64,000 nt of DNA from a virus (taxonomy: Duplodnaviria; Caudoviricetes). The notes beneath the pieces are model-generated. The model was not told where the DNA came from and did no database searches. It saw only the letters and a program-made list of their open reading frames with translations. The position numbers and the translations under genes were made by a program. Below are positions 2,019 to 64,000 of this stretch, in pieces. The stretch lies in the IMG/VR virus record IMGVR_UViG_3300032007_000010. One strand, 5' to 3'. Every line of letters begins with the position of its first letter. Positions within the stretch are counted from its first letter, which is position 1.

Positions 2019-2345
2019 ATGATGGATAAAAGGAGAAATTTTCGAGCCAGCGAACTCATCGCAGAGCTCGAGAAGTTTAAGAACGAATACGGCGACCTCG
2101 ATGTGGTCGCCTACATACCGCTCAAGGATCCTACGAGGTACGTTCCGATGAGTATCAACACCGTCGGAGTGCTGAAGCGTTACAACGGTACGAGCTTTGA
2201 TACGCTCGGATTTGGTCTCAGCCAGCGCATCGGTGATGACCAGGAGCAGAAAACCACAGAGAACCATGAGACAAAGAGTCAACGCACGAAGCTTGGAAAC
2301 ATTTTCAGGTCGCTCTTCGAACGAACGGGGAGACAGCAACAATGA
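2019..2345 (+). CDS. Hypothetical protein
   Basis: AGGAGG RBS, downstream of class E promoter. Confidence 0.7.
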   Translation: MMDKRRNFRASELIAELEKFKNEYGDLDVVAYIPLKDPTRYVPMSINTVGVLKRYNGTSFDTLGFGLSQRIGDDQEQKTTENHETKSQRTKLGNIFRSLFERTGRQQQ

Positions 2346-2388
2346 GACGAATGATAGCAATGTTGAACTAGACTAAGGAGTTGATAGG

Positions 2389-4431
2389 ATGAGCAACAAG
2401 AAGAAGATCATGCCCGAAATCGAGAGACAGGTACGAGCCCAGGATGCTAATCTATACTATCCAACGGATAGGCTTGGGCCAGGATCTGTCATGACCCAGC
2501 AATCGCACACAAATGCTTCTCGTTTGATAATGGAAAATCATCAAATGAGCGACTGCATCAACATCAAGGATCCGGAACCGCCACTGGTACCGACCGGCTT
2601 CGAAAATGTCATGGGACAGTATTCCTTCATGACCAAGCGGGCCGACGGTGACTACGTGATCGTTGCGATATTCAAGAAGAATCAGTACAATGCGGTATAC
2701 ATCGGCTATGATAAGAAGCATCACCACTATGATGCCTGGAAGCGTCAGGAGATAGAGGAACATTCCGAGGGTTTCTGCACTCGCTATGATAACTCATATC
2801 TCGATTCGCTAGAGGTTGGCGATAAGATCAAGAAGGGTGACTATGTGAAAACGTCGAACGCCTTCGACAAGTATCGCAACTATGCACTCGGAAAGAATCT
2901 GAACACCCTCTACATGGTCAGCGCCCAGAATCTCGAGGATGGCATCATGGTCATGAATGGTGCCGAAAACAAGATGAATGCATACCACTGCGAGACGCTC
3001 ACCATCGGTCTCGCCAACAATCAAATCCTCATCAACTGGTATGGCGATGATGACCACTATCAGGGCATTCCGCTCGTTGGCGAGAAGACCAAAAAGGGCA
3101 TTTTGGCTGTGATTCGGAGGATCGATCATAGCATCGCTCCCTATGCGCTCAAGAAGAAGCGTCTCCAGCACATGGAGCGGACCGACGAAAGACGCGTTGG
3201 CAATGGACGTGTCATAGATATCGACATCCGTTTCAATGGTCCCACCGATAAACTTCCGACCACCGGAGCGAATAAGATGCTCACCGAGCTGTATCTGGAG
3301 CAGCAGAAATACTATCGAAAGCTCTATGAGTATATGATCAACATCGCCAACACCGCCTACGAGAAGGGCGATACCTACTCCGACAACTTTAGCATCATCT
3401 GCGAAGAAGCGCACAAATATGTCGACGCAATCGGCTTCTTCGGAGACAACAGTGATTCCGTGTATTCTGCGGAGCAGATGAAGATCAGCATCACGCTGCT
3501 CGAGGAAGAGAAGATGATCGTCGGTTCCAAGATGGTCGGCCGCTATGGCGACAAGGGTGTCATATCCCGCGTCTATACACCCGAGGAATCGTGGCACATG
3601 GAGGATGGAACCCCCATCGAGCTGGTGGTTGCGACCCTCGGCATCGTCGGTCGACTGAATCAGTCCCAGATGAACGAGTGCAATATTACCGAGCTCAGCA
3701 ACACCGCGGTGGAGATGATGCGTGCCACCGGTGATCTCGACATGAAGCTTGCCATCGTGCATCGGCTCATGAAGTATCTGAACTCTGACGAGGCTGACGA
3801 TTTTCGAAGGTTCACGAGACACATGGACTCCTCCGAGAAGAAGAAGCTGTGCCGTCGCATCGAGCGCGAGGGTATCTTCATCGTGCAGGATCCCATTGAC
3901 AATGCCGACATGTTCCAGATCGGCAAGGCTTACAAGGATTTCCCGCCGAACTTCCAGCACGTGATCTTCCCCGACGGCGGCAAGTCCATGTACAAGGTGA
4001 TCTGCTCCAAGAAATTCTACATGCGACTCAAGCAGGATCCGAAGGAAAAGTATTCGGCAAGATCCAGGGGCCCCGTCAATCCCATCACCACATTGCCGGC
4101 AAAGTCCAACCAGAAGAAGCGTGGTCTCGAACCCGTGTCCGATGTTCCGGTTCGCATCGGTGAGTACGAGCAGGAGGTGCTCAATGGCATGACCAACCAC
4201 CCGAAGGTCTGTGCCGACTTCATCGTTGAGAATTCGACGTCCTTCGAGGCGAAGATGCGCATGGCCGAGCACCAATACCTCGGTGATCTCGACGAAGATC
4301 TCGACATCACTGGCATGGAGTTTTCGGGTCAGAAGAACATCGAGGCGATCGACGCCTACAACTACATGTTTGGCGCACGCATCCGCCTCGAGGTCGAGGA
4401 GGCGAAGCCCGGTGAGTATTTCACGGATTGA
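2389..4431 (+). CDS. rpoB: Phage multisubunit RNA polymerase beta subunit, C-terminal piece (probably non-virion RNAP)
   Basis: GKNL..Y...NLEDG, GSKMVGRYGDKGVIS (GDKxxGRHGNKG), GRLN, YMRLKQ..K.SARS.GP, RIGEYE (RxGEME). Confidence 0.9.
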   Translation: MSNKKKIMPEIERQVRAQDANLYYPTDRLGPGSVMTQQSHTNASRLIMENHQMSDCINIKDPEPPLVPTGFENVMGQYSFMTKRADGDYVIVAIFKKNQYNAVYIGYDKKHHHYDAWKRQEIEEHSEGFCTRYDNSYLDSLEVGDKIKKGDYVKTSNAFDKYRNYALGKNLNTLYMVSAQNLEDGIMVMNGAENKMNAYHCETLTIGLANNQILINWYGDDDHYQGIPLVGEKTKKGILAVIRRIDHSIAPYALKKKRLQHMERTDERRVGNGRVIDIDIRFNGPTDKLPTTGANKMLTELYLEQQKYYRKLYEYMINIANTAYEKGDTYSDNFSIICEEAHKYVDAIGFFGDNSDSVYSAEQMKISITLLEEEKMIVGSKMVGRYGDKGVISRVYTPEESWHMEDGTPIELVVATLGIVGRLNQSQMNECNITELSNTAVEMMRATGDLDMKLAIVHRLMKYLNSDEADDFRRFTRHMDSSEKKKLCRRIEREGIFIVQDPIDNADMFQIGKAYKDFPPNFQHVIFPDGGKSMYKVICSKKFYMRLKQDPKEKYSARSRGPVNPITTLPAKSNQKKRGLEPVSDVPVRIGEYEQEVLNGMTNHPKVCADFIVENSTSFEAKMRMAEHQYLGDLDEDLDITGMEFSGQKNIEAIDAYNYMFGARIRLEVEEAKPGEYFTD

Positions 4432-8539: not shown

Positions 8540-10900
8540 ATGAGCAAGAACAAGAAGAAATCGAAGGTCTCTCTGGACAAATCTGTCGCAGAAGCCGCTC
8601 TCTACACGGGAGAGGATCTGGACGAGGATGGTTTCTTCATCCTCAAACCGACAGATGAGGGAAGGAAGCGCATCGATTCCAACAAACCAAAGCTCCGCGT
8701 CATCGAGGCCGAAGATTTCGAGCAGAACAAGGTGCTTCGAGAGATTGGCTATGACATTGAGCCGATCAGTGACATGGTGGATCGCATCGAGGATCACATT
8801 CGCCAGAACCGTTTCACCAAAGGCATTTCCGAATTCGACGCGCGCACCTTCGCCGGTTTCATCACCGAGCTCGAGAAGCTCAATCCGGAGGATAAGAATC
8901 CCGCGATCAAGCCGATGTTCGAGATTGCCCGCCGACTGATCACCATCGGAAAGTCGTACTACGAGTATGATACCGAGGTGCGAAACATCTTTTCGGATCG
9001 TCAGTATGACGCGCTCATCTCCATGTACAACAAGACCGGAAATCCCGAACCCACCGGCATCATTCCGAAGGGTCACAAAACTCTTCAGAAGGCGGCGCAG
9101 ACCTACAAGACGCTGCACAATAACATGGACAAGTGCTATATCATCCACGACGGTGAACCGATTCCGGAAGGCGTGAAGGAAACAGATTCGGTGCAGTCGT
9201 TCCTGACGAGGGTCTACAAAGAGTGTGATATTCCGCACAGCGTGCAAATCACCGTGGATCTTTCGCCGAAGGAGGATGGCGTCTCCGTCAATGGTACGGT
9301 CCACAATGGCAAGCTTCGCGGACCACAGACCCGCGGAGATGCGAACGAATCGGTGGTGGTGATCGGACTCAACAACGTCACGATTGCCGACGAGAAACTT
9401 GACCATGATGATTTCGGGATCCAGTTCGAGGCAATCTGTACCCGCGAGAATGCCAAGAAGGCGGAAGAGTATCTCAAGCTCGAGACTCCCTACGCATCTC
9501 CGAGACATGCCGCGGCCGGAATCATCCACAGGCTCAGCACCATGGAGGATTCCTACCTTGCGAGTCTCATCAGCCTGTATCCGATCAATTCCGAGGGTCT
9601 CGAAGGTACCTATCTTGAGAGAATGGACTTTCTGCGGAATTTTGCACTGATGCCCGCGGATACCCCCTCCAGAAGGCTCGTGACGGGCAATTTCGAAGAA
9701 CTCTTGTCCCAGATTCAAAAATACTTCGAGGAAATGATCGATGCACGTTCCGAGCTCGGTCATTCCATCGACGGCATTGTGATCAGCATCGCCAACGACG
9801 AATATCAGGAGCGCATGGGCAGACTCGGTCGCACCAATAAATGGCAGATTGCGCTCAAGTTCAATCCGGCTTCCGAGAATTCCAAGGCGAGCTATATCCG
9901 TCTGGATTCTGGACGCAAAGGATATCGAACCCTGCAACTCTATCTCGAGCATCCGGTTCTGCTCGATGGCGTCGAATATGATCATGTGCCAATCTTGTCC
10001 ACGCGTCTATTCAAGGAACACAATCTCCGGCATGGCACCGTGGTCAACATCCATCGAGTCGGCGATGTGATCCCGGCAATCAGCGTGGTCGAAGAGGGCA
10101 AGGGCGAGAGACTCAGGCTCCCGGAGGTTTGTCCGAGCTGTGGCAAACGCCTCGTGATCAAGAACGAGAAGCTCTACTGCGACAATGATCGTTGTCCCGA
10201 CAATCTCGTAGGGCTCCTCGTTGGGTTCTTCGAAACCATGGGCATGGACGGCTATTCGGATTCCTTCGCACGCCTCCTCATCGAGAAGATGCATGTGACG
10301 TCGATCGGAGATCTGCTCGACCTCGAAGATGAGGACTTCAGGAAGGCCGATTGTCTCGGTGCACTATCCGTCGGAGTCGCTGATCTGCTCACCAAGGCAA
10401 TCGAATCCAAGCGAGATTTTGAGATTCTCGGCGCGATGGGTATTCCAAACATGGGTTCCGCCAGAGCCCAGAAGTTTATCCAGGCGTTTGCCGAGGACAT
10501 CGATTGGACCGAAGAGGGGCCGGAGCTCATGCTCACGAACAAGTCCAAGGTCACAAAGGCTCTCAGCTTCGCACTCGCACCTTCGATGTTTGAGGACGCC
10601 AATGAGTTCTACTGGGGACACTGGTTCCAGAAATCCTGGAAGGCTCTCATTCCTCACATCAAGAAGAGGGTCAGCGGAGGAAAGGAGAAGATTACTCGGG
10701 TTGGACATCATGGTGGCAAGCTCAGTGCCGAAGTCCGCGCCGTCTGTGATAAGAACGGATTCATCATCACGGACGGTTCTGGTTTCGACATTCTCATCAC
10801 CACATCGCTCTCCGGAGGAGGAACCAAGATGAACCGAGCGAGGAAGTTGAACCTTCCTATCTATCTTCCCGAGAGCTTCATTGGGCAGTATGGTGCCTGA
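8540..10900 (+). CDS. ligA: NAD-dependent DNA ligase
   Basis: YY...SD.QYD domain Ia, SPKEDG adenylation motif, TRGD, IDGIV, IALKF, GDVIP, CPSC...C...C zinc finger, C-terminal BRCT-like region. Confidence 0.93.
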   Translation: MSKNKKKSKVSLDKSVAEAALYTGEDLDEDGFFILKPTDEGRKRIDSNKPKLRVIEAEDFEQNKVLREIGYDIEPISDMVDRIEDHIRQNRFTKGISEFDARTFAGFITELEKLNPEDKNPAIKPMFEIARRLITIGKSYYEYDTEVRNIFSDRQYDALISMYNKTGNPEPTGIIPKGHKTLQKAAQTYKTLHNNMDKCYIIHDGEPIPEGVKETDSVQSFLTRVYKECDIPHSVQITVDLSPKEDGVSVNGTVHNGKLRGPQTRGDANESVVVIGLNNVTIADEKLDHDDFGIQFEAICTRENAKKAEEYLKLETPYASPRHAAAGIIHRLSTMEDSYLASLISLYPINSEGLEGTYLERMDFLRNFALMPADTPSRRLVTGNFEELLSQIQKYFEEMIDARSELGHSIDGIVISIANDEYQERMGRLGRTNKWQIALKFNPASENSKASYIRLDSGRKGYRTLQLYLEHPVLLDGVEYDHVPILSTRLFKEHNLRHGTVVNIHRVGDVIPAISVVEEGKGERLRLPEVCPSCGKRLVIKNEKLYCDNDRCPDNLVGLLVGFFETMGMDGYSDSFARLLIEKMHVTSIGDLLDLEDEDFRKADCLGALSVGVADLLTKAIESKRDFEILGAMGIPNMGSARAQKFIQAFAEDIDWTEEGPELMLTNKSKVTKALSFALAPSMFEDANEFYWGHWFQKSWKALIPHIKKRVSGGKEKITRVGHHGGKLSAEVRAVCDKNGFIITDGSGFDILITTSLSGGGTKMNRARKLNLPIYLPESFIGQYGA

Positions 10901-10922
10901 ATTAGAAACTGACAAGGGGGTA

Positions 10923-10933
10923 ACATATTTATA
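10923..10933 (+). promoter_or_regulatory. Class L promoter driving a non-coding region
   Basis: ACA-TATT-TATA; no RBS-supported ORF downstream before the terminator. Confidence 0.65.
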
Positions 10934-11410
10934 GATGTCAGTTGAAAAATCCGGATGCGGACGGCTGGCGCTTCTAGGTGCCCCTGCAACCTGCTCCCGG
11001 TCGAGGGAGTGGGGACCGGGTGTTACCGGAATTTCGGCACCAAGTTGGCTGTCCGTGTCGTTCTTGTGTGGTGGTAGATCCCCTCCCTGGAGCGCATAGG
11101 CGATCCTGTGGCCATAAGTAGCTGGGTACATTCTATGGGGTGTGCTGATGGTGAAAAAGGTGGTTCAGGGGCGAGCCAGATGGTAGACTTCGTGGGCTAC
11201 TTCTGGTGAAAGATGGGTTATCCCAGGCCAGGGTTTGGAAACATCATCACATGTTGAATCATCAGATGATCAACACGCAGTTACCCATAGTCATAACGAT
11301 TCTTTCGACGATGTGTGAGCATTGGTATAGTCACAATCGCCGTGTGGTTATCAAAGCTTTGAATGAACCAAGTTGCAACGCGGGAGGAGTCAAACGGCTC
11401 CTCCCTCATT
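10933..11410 (+). ncRNA. Putative large (~475 nt) structured non-coding RNA of unknown class
   Basis: Promoter, terminator 11382-11405, and several GU-containing helices (10954-68/11045-59, 10977-82/11036-41, 11133-39/11284-90, 11146-53/11242-49, 11176-11206, 11252-75). Confidence 0.65.
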
Positions 11411-11430
11411 ACATTTTCACAGTAACGAAT

Positions 11431-11441
11431 ACATTATTATA
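11431..11441 (+). promoter_or_regulatory. Class L promoter
   Basis: ACA-TTAT-TATA. Confidence 0.65.
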
Positions 11442-11525
11442 CCTGGAAAGGGGTGATGTGGTGTAGCATGCACAGCACTCCCACCGCAGACAAAAAGTGA
11501 TCACTAAACACAGGAGGAACAAGAC

Positions 11526-12260
11526 ATGTCTGAATTGACCATCAAAGCATTCGTTGCACAGGAGCATTCTGCCTTTGAGAACTTCACCGGCGTCATGGCG
11601 GCTCGCATCGAGGAGGCCTGGACTCGCAGTCTGGCCAAGCGCATGAAGGAGCAGCTCGCCGAGAAGGATCGTGCGGTCGTCGCGCTTCCCTGGGGTACCT
11701 ACTATGCTGAAAAGATCGCCAAGGGTGAGGCCGGCAACATCGCCCCGAAGTGGGAGCCGAGCAAGGGCTTCCGCCAGATCCTCAACAATGACATCCAGGA
11801 TCCCACCGAGCGTTCCGCCGCGGTCAACATGGACGAGATCGATGCGCGCTTCATCCAGCTCTTCCGCGAGTTCGTCGCCTATGGCTGCTTTGACCACGAC
11901 GATCCTGCCAAGAAGGATGACCTGGCCAAGAACAAGGGTATTCGCATCGGCGACAACGAGGCCAACTATTTCCTCAACGAGTATGCGCTGGTGCTGGCGA
12001 ACCTTGCTCGTGAGAAGCAGCGTGATGGGAAGATCTTCCGCCTCGAGATCAACAATGGTTTCGCGCACGGCGTCTTCGACTTCACGTATGACGATGACGA
12101 GGTCAAGGTTACCTGGACCGCGGACAAGACCTTCAAGCAGATGCTCAAGGACGACGAGTCGGCCGCGCACATCGACGATGGTCGGTTTGCCGAGGTCGTC
12201 GGTAGCCGTCGCATCGAGACAGATCTCGAGACCGGCAAGCAGACCGTCACCGACAACTAA
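11526..12260 (+). CDS. Highly expressed protein, possibly tandem HU/IHF-like DNA-binding domains
   Basis: Strongly biased codons; LPWGTY...APKWEPSKGFRQIL and GVFDF...VTWTADKTFKQML both resemble the HU GxF...PxFxPxKxLK pattern. Confidence 0.5.
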   Translation: MSELTIKAFVAQEHSAFENFTGVMAARIEEAWTRSLAKRMKEQLAEKDRAVVALPWGTYYAEKIAKGEAGNIAPKWEPSKGFRQILNNDIQDPTERSAAVNMDEIDARFIQLFREFVAYGCFDHDDPAKKDDLAKNKGIRIGDNEANYFLNEYALVLANLAREKQRDGKIFRLEINNGFAHGVFDFTYDDDEVKVTWTADKTFKQMLKDDESAAHIDDGRFAEVVGSRRIETDLETGKQTVTDN

Positions 12261-12296
12261 CCGAACGGATCGAGGATCTCGATCCAAACAAAACGA

Positions 12297-12338
12297 TCCG
12301 GTGGGCTCAGCCATGCTGTGTCCACCGGATTTCTTTTT
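12297..12338 (+). terminator. Terminator
   Basis: TCCGGTGG...CCACCGGA plus T-run. Confidence 0.7.
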
Positions 12339-12398
12339 AGAGAATCAACAATGAGGCACCCGGTTCGGGTGCCATGTTTTCACATTCGGGATTCATCC

Positions 12399-12408
12399 AT
12401 ATATTATA
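12399..12408 (+). promoter_or_regulatory. Class E promoter
   Basis: ATATATTATA. Confidence 0.7.
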
Positions 12409-12439
12409 CTTGTGACAATTCGAGAAAGGAGATTTCCCA

Positions 12440-13302: not shown

Positions 13303-15186
13303 ATGAGAGATTTTCTGGCAGAATATTGCAAGAAGAATGAAAAGAAGATAAACCCTGACCTGTTCAATCGCACATTCGATAAACCGCTGGTGGATTACAT
13401 CGTTGATACCTTCAAGAATCTCGAGGTATTGCCCGCGGTCAAGCTGAGATCCTGGGAATACATCACGGATCAGACCCAGATCCACACCTATGTCAACAAG
13501 CGCAACAAGCGCGATGTCAAGATCAAAAACAACAAGATTCTCGAACGGCTCTATACCATGGACGATTCGATCTACGACCTCTTGGTATTGCATTTTGAGC
13601 TCAAGGTAAAGGGTCAGCGAGCGGATATCGTTCGTCGTGTCTGGGTGCCCAAGGTGGTGGATGGGCACTACTATCTTCGCTCGGGCAAAAAGGTTCTCCC
13701 GCTCATCCAGATCGTGGACAATTCCACCTTCGTAAAGCAGGGCAACAAGAAGGAGGACAATGTTCTCAACTTCAAGACGACGCTGTATCCGATCAAGATC
13801 TATGCGATTCCGACCAAGATCAGCATCCTGGATCATGCCAAAGATGTCATCTGGAAGATTCCGCTCTTCCAGGTCGATCTCTTCACCAAACCCACGAATC
13901 CGCTGCTGTATTTCCTGGCCGAATACGGCATCGAGTCCACACTCGAGATGTTCAACCTCGAGGAGCTCGTTGCCATCACCCATGATGTGCTTGATCCGGA
14001 TCGGTACATGTATACGAAGATCAACAATCACGTGTACATCGAGGTGAACCGCAAGGCATTCTTTGCACATGAGTTTATCCCGCGCTTCGTGGTGACGCTG
14101 CACAATGCCCTCGCCGAGGACAAGCAGAAGCTCACGCTGCAGGATGTCTTTGATCGGGACTATTGGCTCGGTCGTCTCTCCGAGGTATTCTCGAAGAAGA
14201 GAAACCCGAACAAGGGTGAACGCGTGCTCATATCCTTCAAGAAGGTCATGGATCCATACACGAAGAAGCGTCTTCCACTGAAGAAATACCAGAAGAAGAA
14301 CACCTTCACCGTGATGAAGTGGATGCTGACAAACTTCGAGGACCTGCTCAAAAAGGACTCGAATGATTTGGCAACCAAGCGCATGCGCGCCAATGAGACC
14401 CAGGCATTCTTCATCGATTCCTACGTGACGAAAAATGTGAACAGTTTGCTCAACACGGATGATCCGTCCTTCGATCGGTACATGCGTCTATTCAATGCGA
14501 TATCCGAGGACATTGTGCTGAGATCGTCGCATTCGTCGGGAGGGAAATCCTCGCAGACATCGATGTTCCGCTTCGAGCGCTACAATGATTTCACCGCGCT
14601 GGAGCTCTCGCGTTTCACGCTCAAGGGACCGACCGGTCTCAACGGCGGAAAGAAGAAGACCAATCTCAAATATCGTGACATCTATCCGTCTCACCTTGGC
14701 AGGTTCGATCCGAACGTGTGCTCTTCGAGCGATCCAGGACTCACCGGATATCTCTGCATCAATGTTCAGTTCGATGAGAATGGATACTTCGATTCCAAGT
14801 CGGGGAAGTCGGAACCGAATGGGTACGAAGACTCCATCGACAAGGTGATCGAAAAGTATGCCGAACCTGGCTATGCACAGAAACGAGCCGACATCAAACA
14901 GAACGAGCTCAACCGCGATGCTGATGGTTTCATCGTTCTCCACCGTCGCAAATCGCAGAAGGAGATGACGGAGGAGTTCAACAAGAACCCGTGGAAGTAT
15001 GGTCTATATGATGCGGGAGATTATCTACTGCTTCAGCCGCGCTTCGAGGGACAACGTGATCCGAAGGGATTCATGATGCTCCAGCCAAGACGCAAGGAGC
15101 GGCACAAGCTCTTCGAGACCGAACCGCTGCGTGATAGCGAGGGCTTCCTCGTGCTCACCAAGCTCGAAAAGGGCAAGAAGAAATAA
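13303..15186 (+). CDS. rpoB: Phage RNA polymerase beta subunit, N-terminal piece (probably non-virion RNAP)
   Basis: P...DGHYYL.G, GPTGL, RDIYPSHLGRFDP..CSSSDPGLTGYL (beta region D, H.GR.C...TPE..GL equivalent). Confidence 0.85.
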   Translation: MRDFLAEYCKKNEKKINPDLFNRTFDKPLVDYIVDTFKNLEVLPAVKLRSWEYITDQTQIHTYVNKRNKRDVKIKNNKILERLYTMDDSIYDLLVLHFELKVKGQRADIVRRVWVPKVVDGHYYLRSGKKVLPLIQIVDNSTFVKQGNKKEDNVLNFKTTLYPIKIYAIPTKISILDHAKDVIWKIPLFQVDLFTKPTNPLLYFLAEYGIESTLEMFNLEELVAITHDVLDPDRYMYTKINNHVYIEVNRKAFFAHEFIPRFVVTLHNALAEDKQKLTLQDVFDRDYWLGRLSEVFSKKRNPNKGERVLISFKKVMDPYTKKRLPLKKYQKKNTFTVMKWMLTNFEDLLKKDSNDLATKRMRANETQAFFIDSYVTKNVNSLLNTDDPSFDRYMRLFNAISEDIVLRSSHSSGGKSSQTSMFRFERYNDFTALELSRFTLKGPTGLNGGKKKTNLKYRDIYPSHLGRFDPNVCSSSDPGLTGYLCINVQFDENGYFDSKSGKSEPNGYEDSIDKVIEKYAEPGYAQKRADIKQNELNRDADGFIVLHRRKSQKEMTEEFNKNPWKYGLYDAGDYLLLQPRFEGQRDPKGFMMLQPRRKERHKLFETEPLRDSEGFLVLTKLEKGKKK

Positions 15187-21317: not shown

Positions 21318-21937
21318 TGGACCTGCGCAGGAAAATGCATAGCAGGTCATCCATGACGCTCGGATTCGTATGCCCAAAGTGTCACTGGTATCAAACTGTG
21401 CGTGCCAGCGCCCACATGACCTATCTGGCATCGTCCGAAGAAACTCAGACGACTCCGAAGCTTGATCTGACCAATGTCATCTACGACTGTCCCCATTGTT
21501 CACAGCGCATGCGTCGTGTGAGTTGGTACATGGCTCCCCAGATCGCAAAACTCCTCGAACTATCCAATGTGGATGCGGATAATTGCAGAACCGAGTACGA
21601 CAGCATCAAACCCAACTCGCACTATCCGGATAAAGCGCTGGTGACCTTCCCATCGATCAGCATCGAAGATACTCACATCGGGCTGTTGGCTCAGATCGCA
21701 GAGAGGCTAGCGGATGAGCCGAATTACACGCAGCGCATCTATGTGCGGAATACTCACGTATATGATGATCTCACACTGCCATACATCAGCCTCGAGATTG
21801 GCATGTATGGAAGTGACATCATCTCCTATGATGTGAAGGATGCGCCGGCGGTGAGACAGAAACATCGGGAACTATTCATGGGATTCCTGAATGAACTCAT
21901 CAAGAGATACGAGGAGGGACTGAACAATGGAAATTGA
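21317..21937 (+). CDS. Zinc-ribbon hypothetical protein
   Basis: CPKC...CPHC; GAGGAG RBS. Confidence 0.65.
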   Translation: MDLRRKMHSRSSMTLGFVCPKCHWYQTVRASAHMTYLASSEETQTTPKLDLTNVIYDCPHCSQRMRRVSWYMAPQIAKLLELSNVDADNCRTEYDSIKPNSHYPDKALVTFPSISIEDTHIGLLAQIAERLADEPNYTQRIYVRNTHVYDDLTLPYISLEIGMYGSDIISYDVKDAPAVRQKHRELFMGFLNELIKRYEEGLNNGN

Positions 21938-27777: not shown

Positions 27778-28087
27778 TAGCACTACGATCTGGGAATATC
27801 ATGGCATCTCATACACGATTGGATCGGAGCGTACCTTTGTGATATCGACCGATAATACGAGAAAGACCAAACCCTTCGGTCTCATATCACAAGAGTTTGA
27901 CATTGAGACATTTGTCAGGGAGCATGCGGACAGCTTCGATCATAACATGCTGGTCATCTGGGCACGCATCATTGATATGAAGATCGACCGTCGAGGCAGA
28001 GTCTATCCCATCGTTAAACCAATCACAGCCTTCGAGCGTCAAACGCTGGAGCGTTGTGGAGCACTCGACATATTAGAAGGAGAATAG
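27749..28087 (+). CDS. Hypothetical protein
   Basis: GGAGG before ATG 27749; operon packing. Confidence 0.55.
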   Translation: MMGQSQCHTNSTTIWEYHGISYTIGSERTFVISTDNTRKTKPFGLISQEFDIETFVREHADSFDHNMLVIWARIIDMKIDRRGRVYPIVKPITAFERQTLERCGALDILEGE

Positions 28088-28089
28088 TC

Positions 28090-28548
28090 ATGGGAAGGAA
28101 AAGAATCGTGGACAGACCAGAGCTTGATGTCATTCGGGAGCACATGCCCATACCGACCATCGAGTTCACCCTCGGTTTCGAGGAGTTTATCAGGTATCAT
28201 CGGTTAGCTCCATACAAGTATAGGTTATACCGCAACGGCGTGGTGTACAACGACGTGGCAACCGGCACTGTTCGTCATTTCGGTTTCACCGGTGGAAAGG
28301 ATCTCCATCGTTATCGTCGATGGATGACGATTCGGCGCCGAGAACAGAAAAAGTATGCGGAAGCCATCAAACGGGAACACGCTGCCCGGGCAAAGTACGA
28401 CTTCATCCACAACGAAGTACAGCGCGACATTGATGCCGAGGCACAGCGGGCCGAGGACTGCCTCAATCAGGCGTGCTCTATCTTCGAGGAAATCAAACGG
28501 CTCACCAAGCTAAGAAAATCTTTGAGAGTAAGGAGTAATGTTCAATGA
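28090..28548 (+). CDS. Basic hypothetical protein
   Basis: AAGGAG RBS. Confidence 0.65.
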   Translation: MGRKRIVDRPELDVIREHMPIPTIEFTLGFEEFIRYHRLAPYKYRLYRNGVVYNDVATGTVRHFGFTGGKDLHRYRRWMTIRRREQKKYAEAIKREHAARAKYDFIHNEVQRDIDAEAQRAEDCLNQACSIFEEIKRLTKLRKSLRVRSNVQ

Positions 28549-31329: not shown

Positions 31330-31337
31330 TTTCGATC

Positions 31338-31347
31338 ATATATTATA
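31338..31347 (+). promoter_or_regulatory. Class E promoter
   Basis: ATATATTATA. Confidence 0.7.
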
Positions 31348-31418
31348 CTCCAGAAGAGGGAAATCGATGGTGCCATCGATTTCACCAATAAAATGAAATG
31401 AGAGGAGTATGAGATCAC

Positions 31419-34642: not shown

Positions 34643-35030
34643 CAACGTTAAGGTGGCAGTGTGTCGTGAGGCATGCTGATAAAATCAAGTGAACCCGTAC
34701 ATGCGGGGTGTGTTCAGGACTGTGAGTTCTGAATGCTAACGGTATCAGCGGAACTAAGACAGGCTATGTGACAATCATAGCCCCCGATTCATAATCGGGT
34801 CCGGGCGAATATGCTGACTAAGAGAGCCTGAAGGTCCTAATAAATAGGATAGCTGGGTGATACCGTGCTAAGGTTCTATTGTACAATAGGACAAAGTGTA
34901 ACGACTAACCGGGGTAGCGCCCGAGAGGAGTCCGGTGAAAGTCCGGCTCCGTAGGACTTGAGGTCTGCATGAGCAGATTGTGAGATAGTCTATTCCCCTA
35001 ATAAATATCGGGAAACCGAGGGTACTAAAG
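34643..35030 (+). mobile_element. Group I intron 3 of nrdD (388 nt, ORF-less)
   Basis: P1 CCAU/GUGG, P10 AACGUUAA/UUAACGUU, P7 ACGACUA/AUAGUC, terminal G; removal restores NSYH-VNVRE. Confidence 0.88.
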
Positions 35031-35450
35031 GTTAACGTTAGAGAGCAGATTTCTGCCTTCGATAAACTGCGTTTTGAGGCCGAGTTCCAGAAGCTCAGTC
35101 CCGGCGGTCAGATTTCCTACGTTGAGGTCCCGAACATGTCGAACAATATCGACGCAGTGCTGGACATCATCCGCTACATCGACGATAACATCATGTATGC
35201 GGAGCTCAACACGAAGTCTGACTACTGTCACGAATGCGGCTTCGATGGAGAGATTCTCATCAAGGAAGACAACGGCCAACTCATCTGGGAGTGTCCACAG
35301 TGTGGTAACCGCGATCAGAAGAAGATGAACGTGGCGAGACGCACGTGCGGATACATCGGAACCCAGTGGTGGAACCAGGGACGCACCGAGGAGATCCGCG
35401 ACCGCGTGCTCCACGTGTCCATCCCTGAGGTTGGCAATCCAAACGAGTAG
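35031..35450 (+). CDS. nrdD: nrdD exon 4 (glycyl radical domain)
   Basis: SPGGQISYVE, CHECG...CPQCG zinc site, RRTCGYIG glycyl-radical motif. Confidence 0.92.
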   Translation, partial: VNVREQISAFDKLRFEAEFQKLSPGGQISYVEVPNMSNNIDAVLDIIRYIDDNIMYAELNTKSDYCHECGFDGEILIKEDNGQLIWECPQCGNRDQKKMNVARRTCGYIGTQWWNQGRTEEIRDRVLHVSIPEVGNPNE

Positions 35451-47008: not shown

Positions 47009-47019
47009 ACAAAAATATA
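47009..47019 (+). promoter_or_regulatory. Class L promoter driving a small RNA
   Basis: ACA-AAAA-TATA right after the terminase stop. Confidence 0.6.
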
Positions 47020-59087: not shown

Positions 59088-59549
59088 ATGGATACAAAAT
59101 TGAATTGGATTCCGTTACTCGTAACCCTTGATCAAACCAAGTCGATCAACGACGAAGATAACATTGTACAGGGTCGCGTCGTGCTCAACGGGAACACTGA
59201 TCGAGTCTTGATTAGAGTTTATCCGATTTCTGCAAATCCCCTGGAAACTCAATACCGAGCCGAGATCTTCGACGACGATGATAAGAATCCGGTACACGCT
59301 TTCAACCTATGTTGTGGATCCATGACAGGCGCTTGCCATACCACAGAAGAGTGGCTCATGCCGCTACTGGGAGAGAAGCTGCAACATATGATGCAATTAT
59401 ATATGAAGCTAAGCTGTTTGATGATAGGATACAATGATGATCATCAGAAACAAAAGATGACAATTAAAATTCCTCCTCCCTGCGATATGACGATTGCAAT
59501 AACCGAAGAAGAGAAGATGGTAGATTATATGGAGAACTTCCCGAAATGA
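59088..59549 (+). CDS. Hypothetical protein
   Basis: GAGG RBS. Confidence 0.65.
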   Translation: MDTKLNWIPLLVTLDQTKSINDEDNIVQGRVVLNGNTDRVLIRVYPISANPLETQYRAEIFDDDDKNPVHAFNLCCGSMTGACHTTEEWLMPLLGEKLQHMMQLYMKLSCLMIGYNDDHQKQKMTIKIPPPCDMTIAITEEEKMVDYMENFPK

Positions 59550-59817
59550 TGGATATGAATAAGTTTTTCCTTGCTCAACCACACCAACCTGAATGACTAA
59601 ATAAGAGGAAACAAAATGATGAATCGAGGGATTCCTTCATTACCACCAATCTACTCCATAGTAGAGTATTCCAACTATGTTTGTGATAGCGTGACGGTGC
59701 TTTCGCGACAAACAATGCATATACATCACTATTACACAAACCTGAGAATCAAACAACGGTTATGCGAAGATGCAGAACATTTTCTCCAATCCGTTCTGAG
59801 TGAAAGGAGTTGACAGG

Positions 59818-63538: not shown

Positions 63539-64000
63539 TTGACGCCAGGCAAGGTGTCTGTTCGAGGAATGAAATGAGGAAGTAACGTTCCGAAGCATTC
63601 CCTCTAATATCCGGGCAATGGAGCTGGTGACAGCTCGGTTGTAAGACCGGTGAAGTCGCGTCTCGAGCGCGGGAGTCAGATCGACATGGTGAGGAACACG
63701 AACATCCTCACGGATGGCTGGACTTGGACGAGTAGTCTTGTCTCTGTTGCGAAAGTCCTCTTTGGCTCATGGGGCCAATGCTACAGACCAGTCATGTAAT
63801 AGGATGCACCTAAATCGATCTTATGATAGAACAGATGCAACCTGGGAGATCTCATTGTTCCAAATGAACCATGAGAAGTCGGAGGGGTCATAGTACCGAT
63901 GAAGTCGCCAATCACGATGGAGGGAAGGACCCTAGCGGGTGATGTTTATCACCCGGTGAAAGCCGAATATGGGGAAACTCGTACGTTCGGTTTGGCCAGA
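63539..64000 (+). mobile_element. ORF-less group II intron (continues past window end)
   Basis: Domain V AGCCGAATATGGG-GAAA-CTCGTACGTTCGGTT (63961-63992, AGC triad and AC bulge); domain III AGTCGGAG..ATAGTACCGATGAAG..GGAGGGAAGG; 20-nt domain IV hairpin; EBS1/EBS2 match the exon. Confidence 0.85.

Follow-up and report, generated by a model that had tools for sequence, protein, structure and literature searches.

Our analysis identifies what is very probably a genuine RNA gene at positions 10933-11418, on the plus strand, of a 64,000-nt stretch of phage DNA (the window), which comprises bases 20387-84386 of a 287,660-bp IMG/VR phage record (IMGVR_UViG_3300032007_000010; 51% G+C). The case for a structured RNA rests on base-pair covariation among homologues rather than on the folding of a single sequence. 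On balance, we favour a fuller statement in which this is a separate gene for a stable, folded non-coding RNA (ncRNA) of an undescribed family, which would be a late product of the phage's non-virion RNA polymerase (nvRNAP) and would act in trans as a scaffold. An unclassified large phage ncRNA had been proposed in a preliminary description of the locus, and the non-coding status of the element, its late promoter, its 3′ hairpin, covariation over seven lineages and the lack of a matching Rfam family all agree with that proposal. For the nvRNAP beta-N subunit encoded nearby (13303-15186), the only matches are to AR9/PBS1 and to jumbo phages of Yersinia and of the Staphylococcus S6/PALS_2 type, all with identities near 24% and with AR9/PBS1 as the best match (24%). 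The source is therefore an uncultivated phage distantly related to the AR9 group.

Covariation supports a conserved plus-strand RNA

Pattern scans provided homologous DNA from five IMG/VR loci and twelve metagenome loci, designated here by L numbers. Gap sequences equivalent to that holding the element are alignable in seven lineages, namely the window, L006, L002 (the same as L009), L003/L008/L010/L011, L012, L007 and L013, and their most conserved block corresponds to 11081-11244 of the window. RNAalifold predicts 81 pairs from a structure-blind MAFFT alignment of the whole element (A3), in which 93.9% of cells pair as against 36-45% after sliding the partners by 1-3 columns, and none of 500 shuffles attains the observed values. 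A covariance model of the core (R1; 11081-11244, 164 positions, 42 pairs) matches every aligned lineage with E values of 1e-25 to 1e-48, in the syntenic place only, and with one copy in each of the four matching virus records (G000, G002, G003 and G004). When the core is aligned by fitting to a model (A6), 95.7% of cells pair as against 33-45% in the slid controls, and again 0 of 500 shuffles reach the observed value. Compensatory changes, which the preliminary description had set as a test, occur in 22 of the 42 core pairs of A6 and in 36 of the 81 pairs of A3, although these cell and pair counts overstate the number of independent events because the seven lineages share ancestry and several are close. 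As generally expected of a conserved structured RNA, compensatory pairs are found beyond what the slid and shuffled controls give. Uncultivated AR9-like jumbo phages of seven or more lineages thus carry the RNA, once per genome and in the same syntenic place.

G.U pairs account for 85 of the 371 pair cells, and several are invariant. The earlier observation that they work only on the plus strand carries over to the homologues, where pairing is 95.7% on the plus strand and falls to 73% when the alignment is read on the minus strand. The conserved G.U pairs and the loss of pairing on the minus strand therefore indicate a plus-strand RNA, with the constraint acting on RNA rather than on DNA. A minus-strand RNA was ruled out by the same G.U content.

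The element is non-coding and single-copy

The gap in which the element lies, described previously as a non-coding stretch of about 620 nt, measures 625 nt (10901-11525) and ranks eighth by size among the gaps of the 287,660-bp genome. Under a codon-usage model trained on long open reading frames (ORFs) of the same genome, every ORF in the gap scores negative, while the flanking ligase gene and 244-residue gene score +0.32 and +0.44 per codon (genome mean 0.23). At least two stops interrupt each of the six frames of the element in all six homologues examined. A coding gene is ruled out by these negative scores and by the stops in all frames of all homologues; a near-leaderless 54-residue ORF at 10935 was considered separately and is without conservation. 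The gap sequence is single-copy within the genome, which rules out a repeat or mobile element, and it has no nucleotide match in 50,697 phage records. Searches of phage records and of IMG/VR with single proteins gave no match. Nucleotide identity in the core is 0.67-0.72, compared with 0.59-0.67 in the flanking coding genes.

Architecture of the RNA

The predicted RNA and its parts are as follows.

10933-11418, plus strand: predicted RNA of about 486 nt, from promoter start to tail end (homologues 391-399 nt)
10954-11059, plus strand: domain I, a long helix (10954-69/11044-59) followed by helix 10977-82/11036-41, which closes a three-way junction
10990-11013 and 11016-11029, plus strand: hairpin A and hairpin B (loop GUGUUA), the arms of the domain I junction
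11066-11075, plus strand: 5′ strand of the outer helix, GUGUGGUGGU, paired with 11243-11252 in the minimum free energy (MFE) fold
11243-11252, plus strand: 3′ strand of the outer helix, AUCAUCACAU, paired with 11066-11075
11085-11233, plus strand: conserved core, a five-way junction with closing helix 11085-90/11228-33, from R1 and covariation
11093-11102, 11104-11170, 11176-11206 and 11214-11225, plus strand: core arms Pa, Pb, Pc and Pd, of which Pa and Pd are short hairpins and Pb is long
11116-11159, plus strand: internal loop of arm Pb, the most conserved, with AAGUA at 11116-20 and GAAAAAG at 11153-59
11176-11206, plus strand: arm Pc, with 5 bp, an invariant bulged U, 5 bp and an invariant tip A-CU-NCGN-GG-G
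11253-11274, plus strand: 3′ hairpin with a conserved UUGA-A/UCAA base and bulged A, in the window, L002, L003, L007, L012 and L013
11275-11381, plus strand: variable 3′ region, about 90 nt longer in the window than in homologues and unalignable between lineages

Domain I is well supported, with compensatory changes at 13 of the 20 pairs of A3 helices 1-3, which are 90-100% paired, and its three-way junction folds independently in the window, L002, L003 and L012. Both of its principal helices had been recognised beforehand, as 10954-68/11045-59 (15 bp, five of them G.U) and 10977-82/11036-41, and both show compensatory changes in homologues. The two competing folds suggested for the junction arms fare differently. 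Pairing of CCUGCUCCC with GGGAGUGGG (10990-11013) is conserved and is adjoined by a conserved hairpin, CCGG-GUGUUA-CCGG (11016-29); the alternative CCCGGUC/GACCGGG is without comparative support, as is the pseudoknot proposed for its loop.

The outer helix has an equivalent in homologues (A3 helices 4-5) that is 84-91% paired, with three compensatory pairs. Two long-range helices of the preliminary description, each of which can form in the window sequence but is not conserved, give way to this arrangement. The first, 11133-39/11284-90, clashes with a conserved local hairpin at 11125-11146. The second, 11146-53/11242-49, clashes with the conserved junction strand 11146-59, and its other strand falls where 11243-52 pairs with 11066-75.

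Within the five-way junction the linkers are purine-rich (GCGAG and UGAAAGA). Between the strands of the Pb internal loop lie a short helix of 3 bp (11121-23/11150-52) and the hairpin at the tip (11125-46), and ATAAGTA and GAA..AG are invariant columns in nine sequences; the AGUA/GAA combination is one that we take to fit the sarcin-ricin/loop E consensus. Arm Pc, a hairpin already noted at 11176-11206, has compensatory changes at eight of its 12 pairs and pairs in 100% of cells, with invariant G.U pairs and an invariant tip. The 3′ hairpin, given earlier as 11252-75, is likewise upheld, occurring in six of the seven lineages with a covarying stem; by inspection, its inner stems differ as AUCAUC/GAUGAU, UUCUC/GAGAA, CCU/AGG and CAAUC/GAUUG. 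Complements of the invariant loops are not enriched elsewhere in the genome.

Transcription signals and the possibility of a cis-acting leader

Three signals frame the element.

10922-10933, plus strand: late promoter AACATATTTATA, that is AACA-TATTTA-TA, an exact fit to AACA-N6-TA
11382-11405, plus strand: terminator-like 10-bp G+C-rich hairpin in the MFE fold, followed by the tail ATTACATTTTC / UCAUUACAUUUUC to 11418
11430-11442, plus strand: second promoter-like motif TACATTATTATAC, with one mismatch to AACA-N6-TA and fitting the TATTATAC class, for the downstream gene

The late promoter of AR9 is AACA-(6N)-TA/G, in which transcription starts at the final base, and the AR9 nvRNAP reads the template strand as 3′-UUGU-N6-AU-5′ (PMC5312081; PMC9209446). 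The late promoter suspected at the start of the element fits this consensus exactly, predicting a start at A10933, and a matching motif recurs upstream of the RNA in five homologues (L002, L003, L006, L012 and L013). Across the genome AACA-N4-TATA is found 34 times against 8.6 expected, and of these 34 matches 25 are intergenic (intergenic DNA being 11% of the genome) and 21 stand no more than 150 nt upstream of a co-oriented start. The match at 10922 stands out because the next start codon is 593 nt away. The element thus carries an AR9-type late-promoter motif, its activity as a promoter being predicted from sequence.

At the 3′ end, L002, L003, L007 and L012 also have a hairpin and, directly after it, ATTAC(A)TTTTC (in L012, ATTAGTTTTC). 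This tail motif is otherwise nearly absent from the genome, with one other loose match, which is genic, and does not serve as a general signal; a hairpin 3′ of the next gene has a similar tail, AUGUUUUCAC. The claim that the element has its own terminator is upheld as regards the hairpin and its conserved tail, although not as regards recognition by a generic terminator scan, which is weighed below. A second promoter-like motif lies between the hairpin and the 244-residue gene, which argues for two transcription units. The TATTATAC class to which it belongs has five copies in the genome, all of them intergenic, and an exact AACA-N6-TA stands in the same place in L002 (AACAAATTTATA) and L013 (AACAACAGCATA).

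These signals bear directly on an unlikely alternative, in which the element is a long cis-acting leader of the riboswitch or attenuator kind, transcribed from the late promoter at 10922, its folded part acting as a sensor that sets either a stop at 11382-11405 or read-through into the HU/IHF-like gene downstream. The element always stands directly upstream of the same gene and in the same orientation, the imperfect U-tail makes read-through plausible, and read-through could be needed for late expression of the gene, given that its nearer promoter-like motif belongs to the TATTATAC class. Leaders of comparable length are known, as AR9 5′ untranslated regions reach 491 nt (PMC5312081). However, every lineage has a separate promoter-like motif between hairpin and gene, which in L002 and L013 matches the late consensus exactly. 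The core is parted from the terminator by 100-150 nt of extra hairpins and variable sequence, so no obvious conserved alternative pairing is available. A GGGAG/CUCCC antiterminator pairing seen in the window and L002 is, by inspection, absent from L012 and L007 and was dropped. At 390-490 nt the element also far exceeds known riboswitches, and no riboswitch family matched it.

A probable undescribed RNA family

Scanning the gap with Rfam 15 (4227 models, which include RNase P, tmRNA, SRP, 6S, ROOL, GOLLD, OLE, HEARO, raiA, riboswitches and pRNA) gave no match at gathering thresholds, and at E≤10 only chance snoRNA and miRNA rows of 12-19 bits, which differ among the window, L002 and L013. ARAGORN finds 0 tRNA or tmRNA genes in the whole window. 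The earlier impression that the element bears no known RNA signature is in line with these searches. An intron in a host gene was rejected, since no gene is interrupted: the ligase is full length (homologues 754-811 residues) with all its domains present, the 244-residue gene is complete by comparison with 29 homologues, and the element has its own promoter. No Rfam intron model matches in the gap, while the same scan detects a group II intron at 63549-64000, although the Rfam group I model is insensitive; nor does the element have sequence similarity to the introns of the same genome.

Intron-like or catalytic activity is relevant to a second alternative, which we regard as improbable, namely that the RNA is a ribozyme, self-processing or acting in trans (on RNA ends, for example) and akin in spirit to the self-splicing introns of the phage. 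The large multi-helix junction with invariant unpaired purines would suit such a role, RNAs this large and complex have historically often proved catalytic, and the genome is rich in self-splicing introns, such as the Rfam group II element just mentioned. Against this, the element matches no ribozyme or intron family, interrupts no gene and is unlike the introns of its own genome, and no conserved pseudoknot turned up, though no pseudoknot search was made.

Large, intricately folded RNAs without known relatives are rare, and past cases have proved to be ribozymes, riboswitches or unexpected RNA assemblies. The large 'ornate' orphan ncRNAs ROOL, GOLLD and OLE, the first two of which are often borne by phages or prophages, are among the nearest comparisons (PMC12286853). 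The element resembles them in its length of hundreds of nucleotides, its many covarying helices, its organisation as a free-standing gene with its own signals and its phage association, and also in having no function assigned, as was the case for them at their discovery. Unlike them it has no Rfam match, is smaller (390-490 nt), occurs in AR9-like jumbo phages and has a phage-polymerase promoter, and no self-complementary loops that would suggest homo-oligomers were seen in it.

The lysine riboswitch is a five-way junction of about 150 nt with a long arm containing an AGUA/GAA loop-E-like internal loop. The core of the new RNA resembles that junction (L-box, RF00168), and the shared five-way form and loop-E-like arm also speak for the cis-acting leader considered above. 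However, the lysine riboswitch has the order P1-P2(loop E, K-turn)-P3-P4-P5, whereas in the new RNA a short hairpin precedes the long arm, the core lies within a much larger RNA, and the terminator is 150 nt away behind other hairpins. No RF00168 row appeared at E≤10 in three homologues (window, L002 and L013). The pRNA of phi29 provides a precedent for a structural RNA that a phage encodes under its own promoter and that acts in trans as part of a protein machine. It differs in being about 174 nt long, in being an early product and in assembling into rings by loop-loop pairing, and the new RNA has no sequence or model similarity to it and no link to packaging genes. The late transcription units of AR9 have a promoter motif and spacing identical to those of the new RNA, for which use of the polymerase is predicted; AR9 itself differs in that neither it nor PALS_2 has a comparable gap. 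No described family was matched and no known system fits, and the element is thus assigned to a new class, a previously undescribed RNA family that, on present sequence data, is small. Novelty is set here against Rfam 15; a separate catalogue lists 8,495 short IMG/VR RNA candidates of 29-151 nt (PMC10690425).

Genomic context and distribution

The RNA gene sits among nvRNAP subunit genes and near genes for replication and transcription. Its immediate neighbours are the following.

8540-10900, plus strand: NAD-dependent DNA ligase of 786 residues (Pfam PF01653 and PF03120, PHROG 3869), upstream of the gap
11526-12260, plus strand: downstream gene for a 244-residue protein without a Pfam or PHROG match, whose internally duplicated fold is plausibly of the single-chain HU/IHF-like kind

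The ligase also stands upstream of the gap in L002, L004, L006, L012 and L013. The order of ligase, a gap of 496-643 nt, the 244-residue gene, a gene of about 250 residues and an nvRNAP subunit is kept in L002-L006 and L008-L013, and L015/L017 is the sole exception among complete loci, with a gap of 1159 nt that probably contains a small ORF. No reverse transcriptase, nuclease or CRISPR array adjoins the element.

Location among nvRNAP subunit genes is one of the observations behind a very improbable third alternative, a decoy or regulator of the phage nvRNAP following the logic of 6S RNA, in which a late RNA, if abundant, could titrate the promoter-specificity subunit by means of a UGUU loop. 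The AR9 nvRNAP recognises single-stranded, U-containing template DNA, 3′-UUGU-5′ (PMC9209446), and hairpin B displays the loop GUGUUA in the window, GUGUU in L012 and GUGUA in L002/L003. A four-base motif is nevertheless weak evidence, L002/L003 have UGUA instead of UGUU, and the loop is missing from L006 and L013. Conservation is strongest in other parts of the RNA, nothing in it is like an open-promoter bubble, and the 6S models of Rfam are unmatched.

It is similarly very doubtful that the locus encodes a primer RNA transcribed from a replication origin, as in the ColE1 RNA II or T4 origin R-loop type. A non-coding region with its own promoter beside the ligase and other replication and transcription genes would be a suitable setting, and ColE1 RNA II is itself a folded RNA of about 550 nt, a likeness that counts for such a primer. 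However, GC skew is flat with no turning point at the locus, which contains no iterons, AT-rich unwinding repeats or repeats of any kind, the promoter is of the late class, and the terminator would release the RNA.

Outside the seven lineages, the ligase to nvRNAP neighbourhood is kept in AR9 and in Staphylococcus phage PALS_2, which have no comparable non-coding gap and give no R1 match there. The IMG/VR pattern scan re-found only three known contigs. Two chance matches from the GTDB pattern scan were rejected, one lying within a 1248-residue ORF (R1 13.6 bits) and the other having no R1 match; by pattern scan and R1 no family member was found in GTDB genomes. In L004/L005 (3358-4000) and L015/L017 (about 2260-3000), gaps of 640-740 nt between the ligase and the 244-residue gene show no R1 match, and a diverged or different RNA is possible in both. 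An AR9-early-like motif, TATATATTATA, is present upstream of the gap preceding the 244-residue gene in L014 and L015.

A model for RNA function and a candidate protein partner

Our results are consistent with a model in which the phage nvRNAP would make a discrete RNA of about 400-490 nt late in infection, and in which the shape of this RNA would allow it to act in trans, as a scaffold that binds protein or RNA. Docking sites on the five-way-junction core would be provided by its invariant unpaired and loop elements, namely the AAGUA/GAA loop, the purine-rich linkers, and the tip and bulged U of Pc. A candidate partner is the single-chain HU/IHF-like protein encoded directly downstream, which is predicted to be abundantly expressed. 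A more specific version, that the element represents an undescribed class of large RNA (390-490 nt) restricted to one clade of uncultivated AR9-like jumbo phages, made late by the nvRNAP and serving either as the subunit of a ribonucleoprotein with the adjacent HU/IHF-like protein or as a new ribozyme, is put forward tentatively, as we think it rather less probable than not.

The identity of the neighbouring protein bears on this model. It has 29 homologues at 42-86% identity and its AlphaFold2 model (mean predicted local distance difference test score 83) comprises two repeats of helix, three strands and helix. Having no Pfam match, it has no Bac_DNA_binding signature; Foldseek against the PDB returned nothing for it, and AR9 g100 was rejected as a homologue (hhalign probability 1%). 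VIA-align places single-chain IHF (2iif) at Z 7.6 and HU/IHF monomers at Z 4.5-5.0 on the first half, yet microtubule inner proteins score higher, at Z 9-11, and the HU-like label is thus plausible, though short of established. The description of this neighbour as highly expressed and HU-like agrees with its codon bias, the score being the highest in the neighbourhood (0.44 against the mean of 0.23), while its HU-like identity is qualified by the ranking of the structural matches.

That ranking, together with the shared ancestry that inflates the pair counts, is among several points that weigh against the scaffold model as a whole. The link of the RNA to the HU-like protein rests on adjacency within a wholly syntenic region. 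The distant phages L004/L005, L014 and L015/L017 keep the 244-residue protein and have gaps with no R1 match, and an unfiltered R1 run found nothing in the gaps of L004 and L015; such distant relatives may therefore carry a diverged or different RNA, and an obligate RNA-protein pair does not follow from the data. Folding of the single sequence gives z-scores of -1.9 on the plus strand and -1.6 on the minus strand, weak evidence when taken alone. A generic terminator scan does not flag the 11382-11405 hairpin because its U-run is set back from the stem, and the 3′ end of the RNA is therefore one that we infer; more generally, both transcript ends and the stability of the RNA are predictions from sequence. 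Finally, the present data do not separate a scaffold from a ribozyme, decoy or sensor.

Jumbo phages are not known to have a class of large structured RNA, and a 2026 jumbo-phage review mentions ncRNAs in passing only. The combination of a promoter for a non-canonical phage polymerase, a compact five-way core, invariant loops and a conserved neighbour with a plausible nucleic-acid-binding fold makes this a directly testable RNA. The locus also illustrates that promoters of phage polymerases can serve to find RNA genes in the genomes of uncultivated phages.

Additional features of the genome

Three stacked hairpins lie at 12262-12390, 3′ of the 244-residue gene. Among them are a canonical terminator with a U-run (12297-12338) and a hairpin that precedes AUGUUUUCAC, a sequence resembling the RNA's own tail. 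Promoters of a second class, ..ATATTATAC / TATTATAC, occur at 12398-12409, 31337-31348, 11435-11442 and, on the minus strand, 59077, and resemble the AR9 early consensus AAATATATATTAT.

The group II intron at 63549-64000 lies inside a 1856-nt gap (62502-64357); its D1-D4-5 match scores 66 bits, and the start of domain V/VI is cut by the end of the window. Other gaps of 480-610 nt that hold no ORF with a positive codon score are found at 21318-21926, 28043-28544, 34652-35135 and 59298-59799. Matches to AACA-N4-TATA also stand far from co-oriented starts at window position 47019 (plus strand, 4127 nt) and at genome positions 100229 (plus strand, 2760 nt) and 244992 (plus strand, 401 nt). Such remote late-type promoters may drive non-coding or antisense transcripts or unrecognised small genes, and the one at genome position 100229 opens a gap of 1471 nt with a G+C content of 40%.

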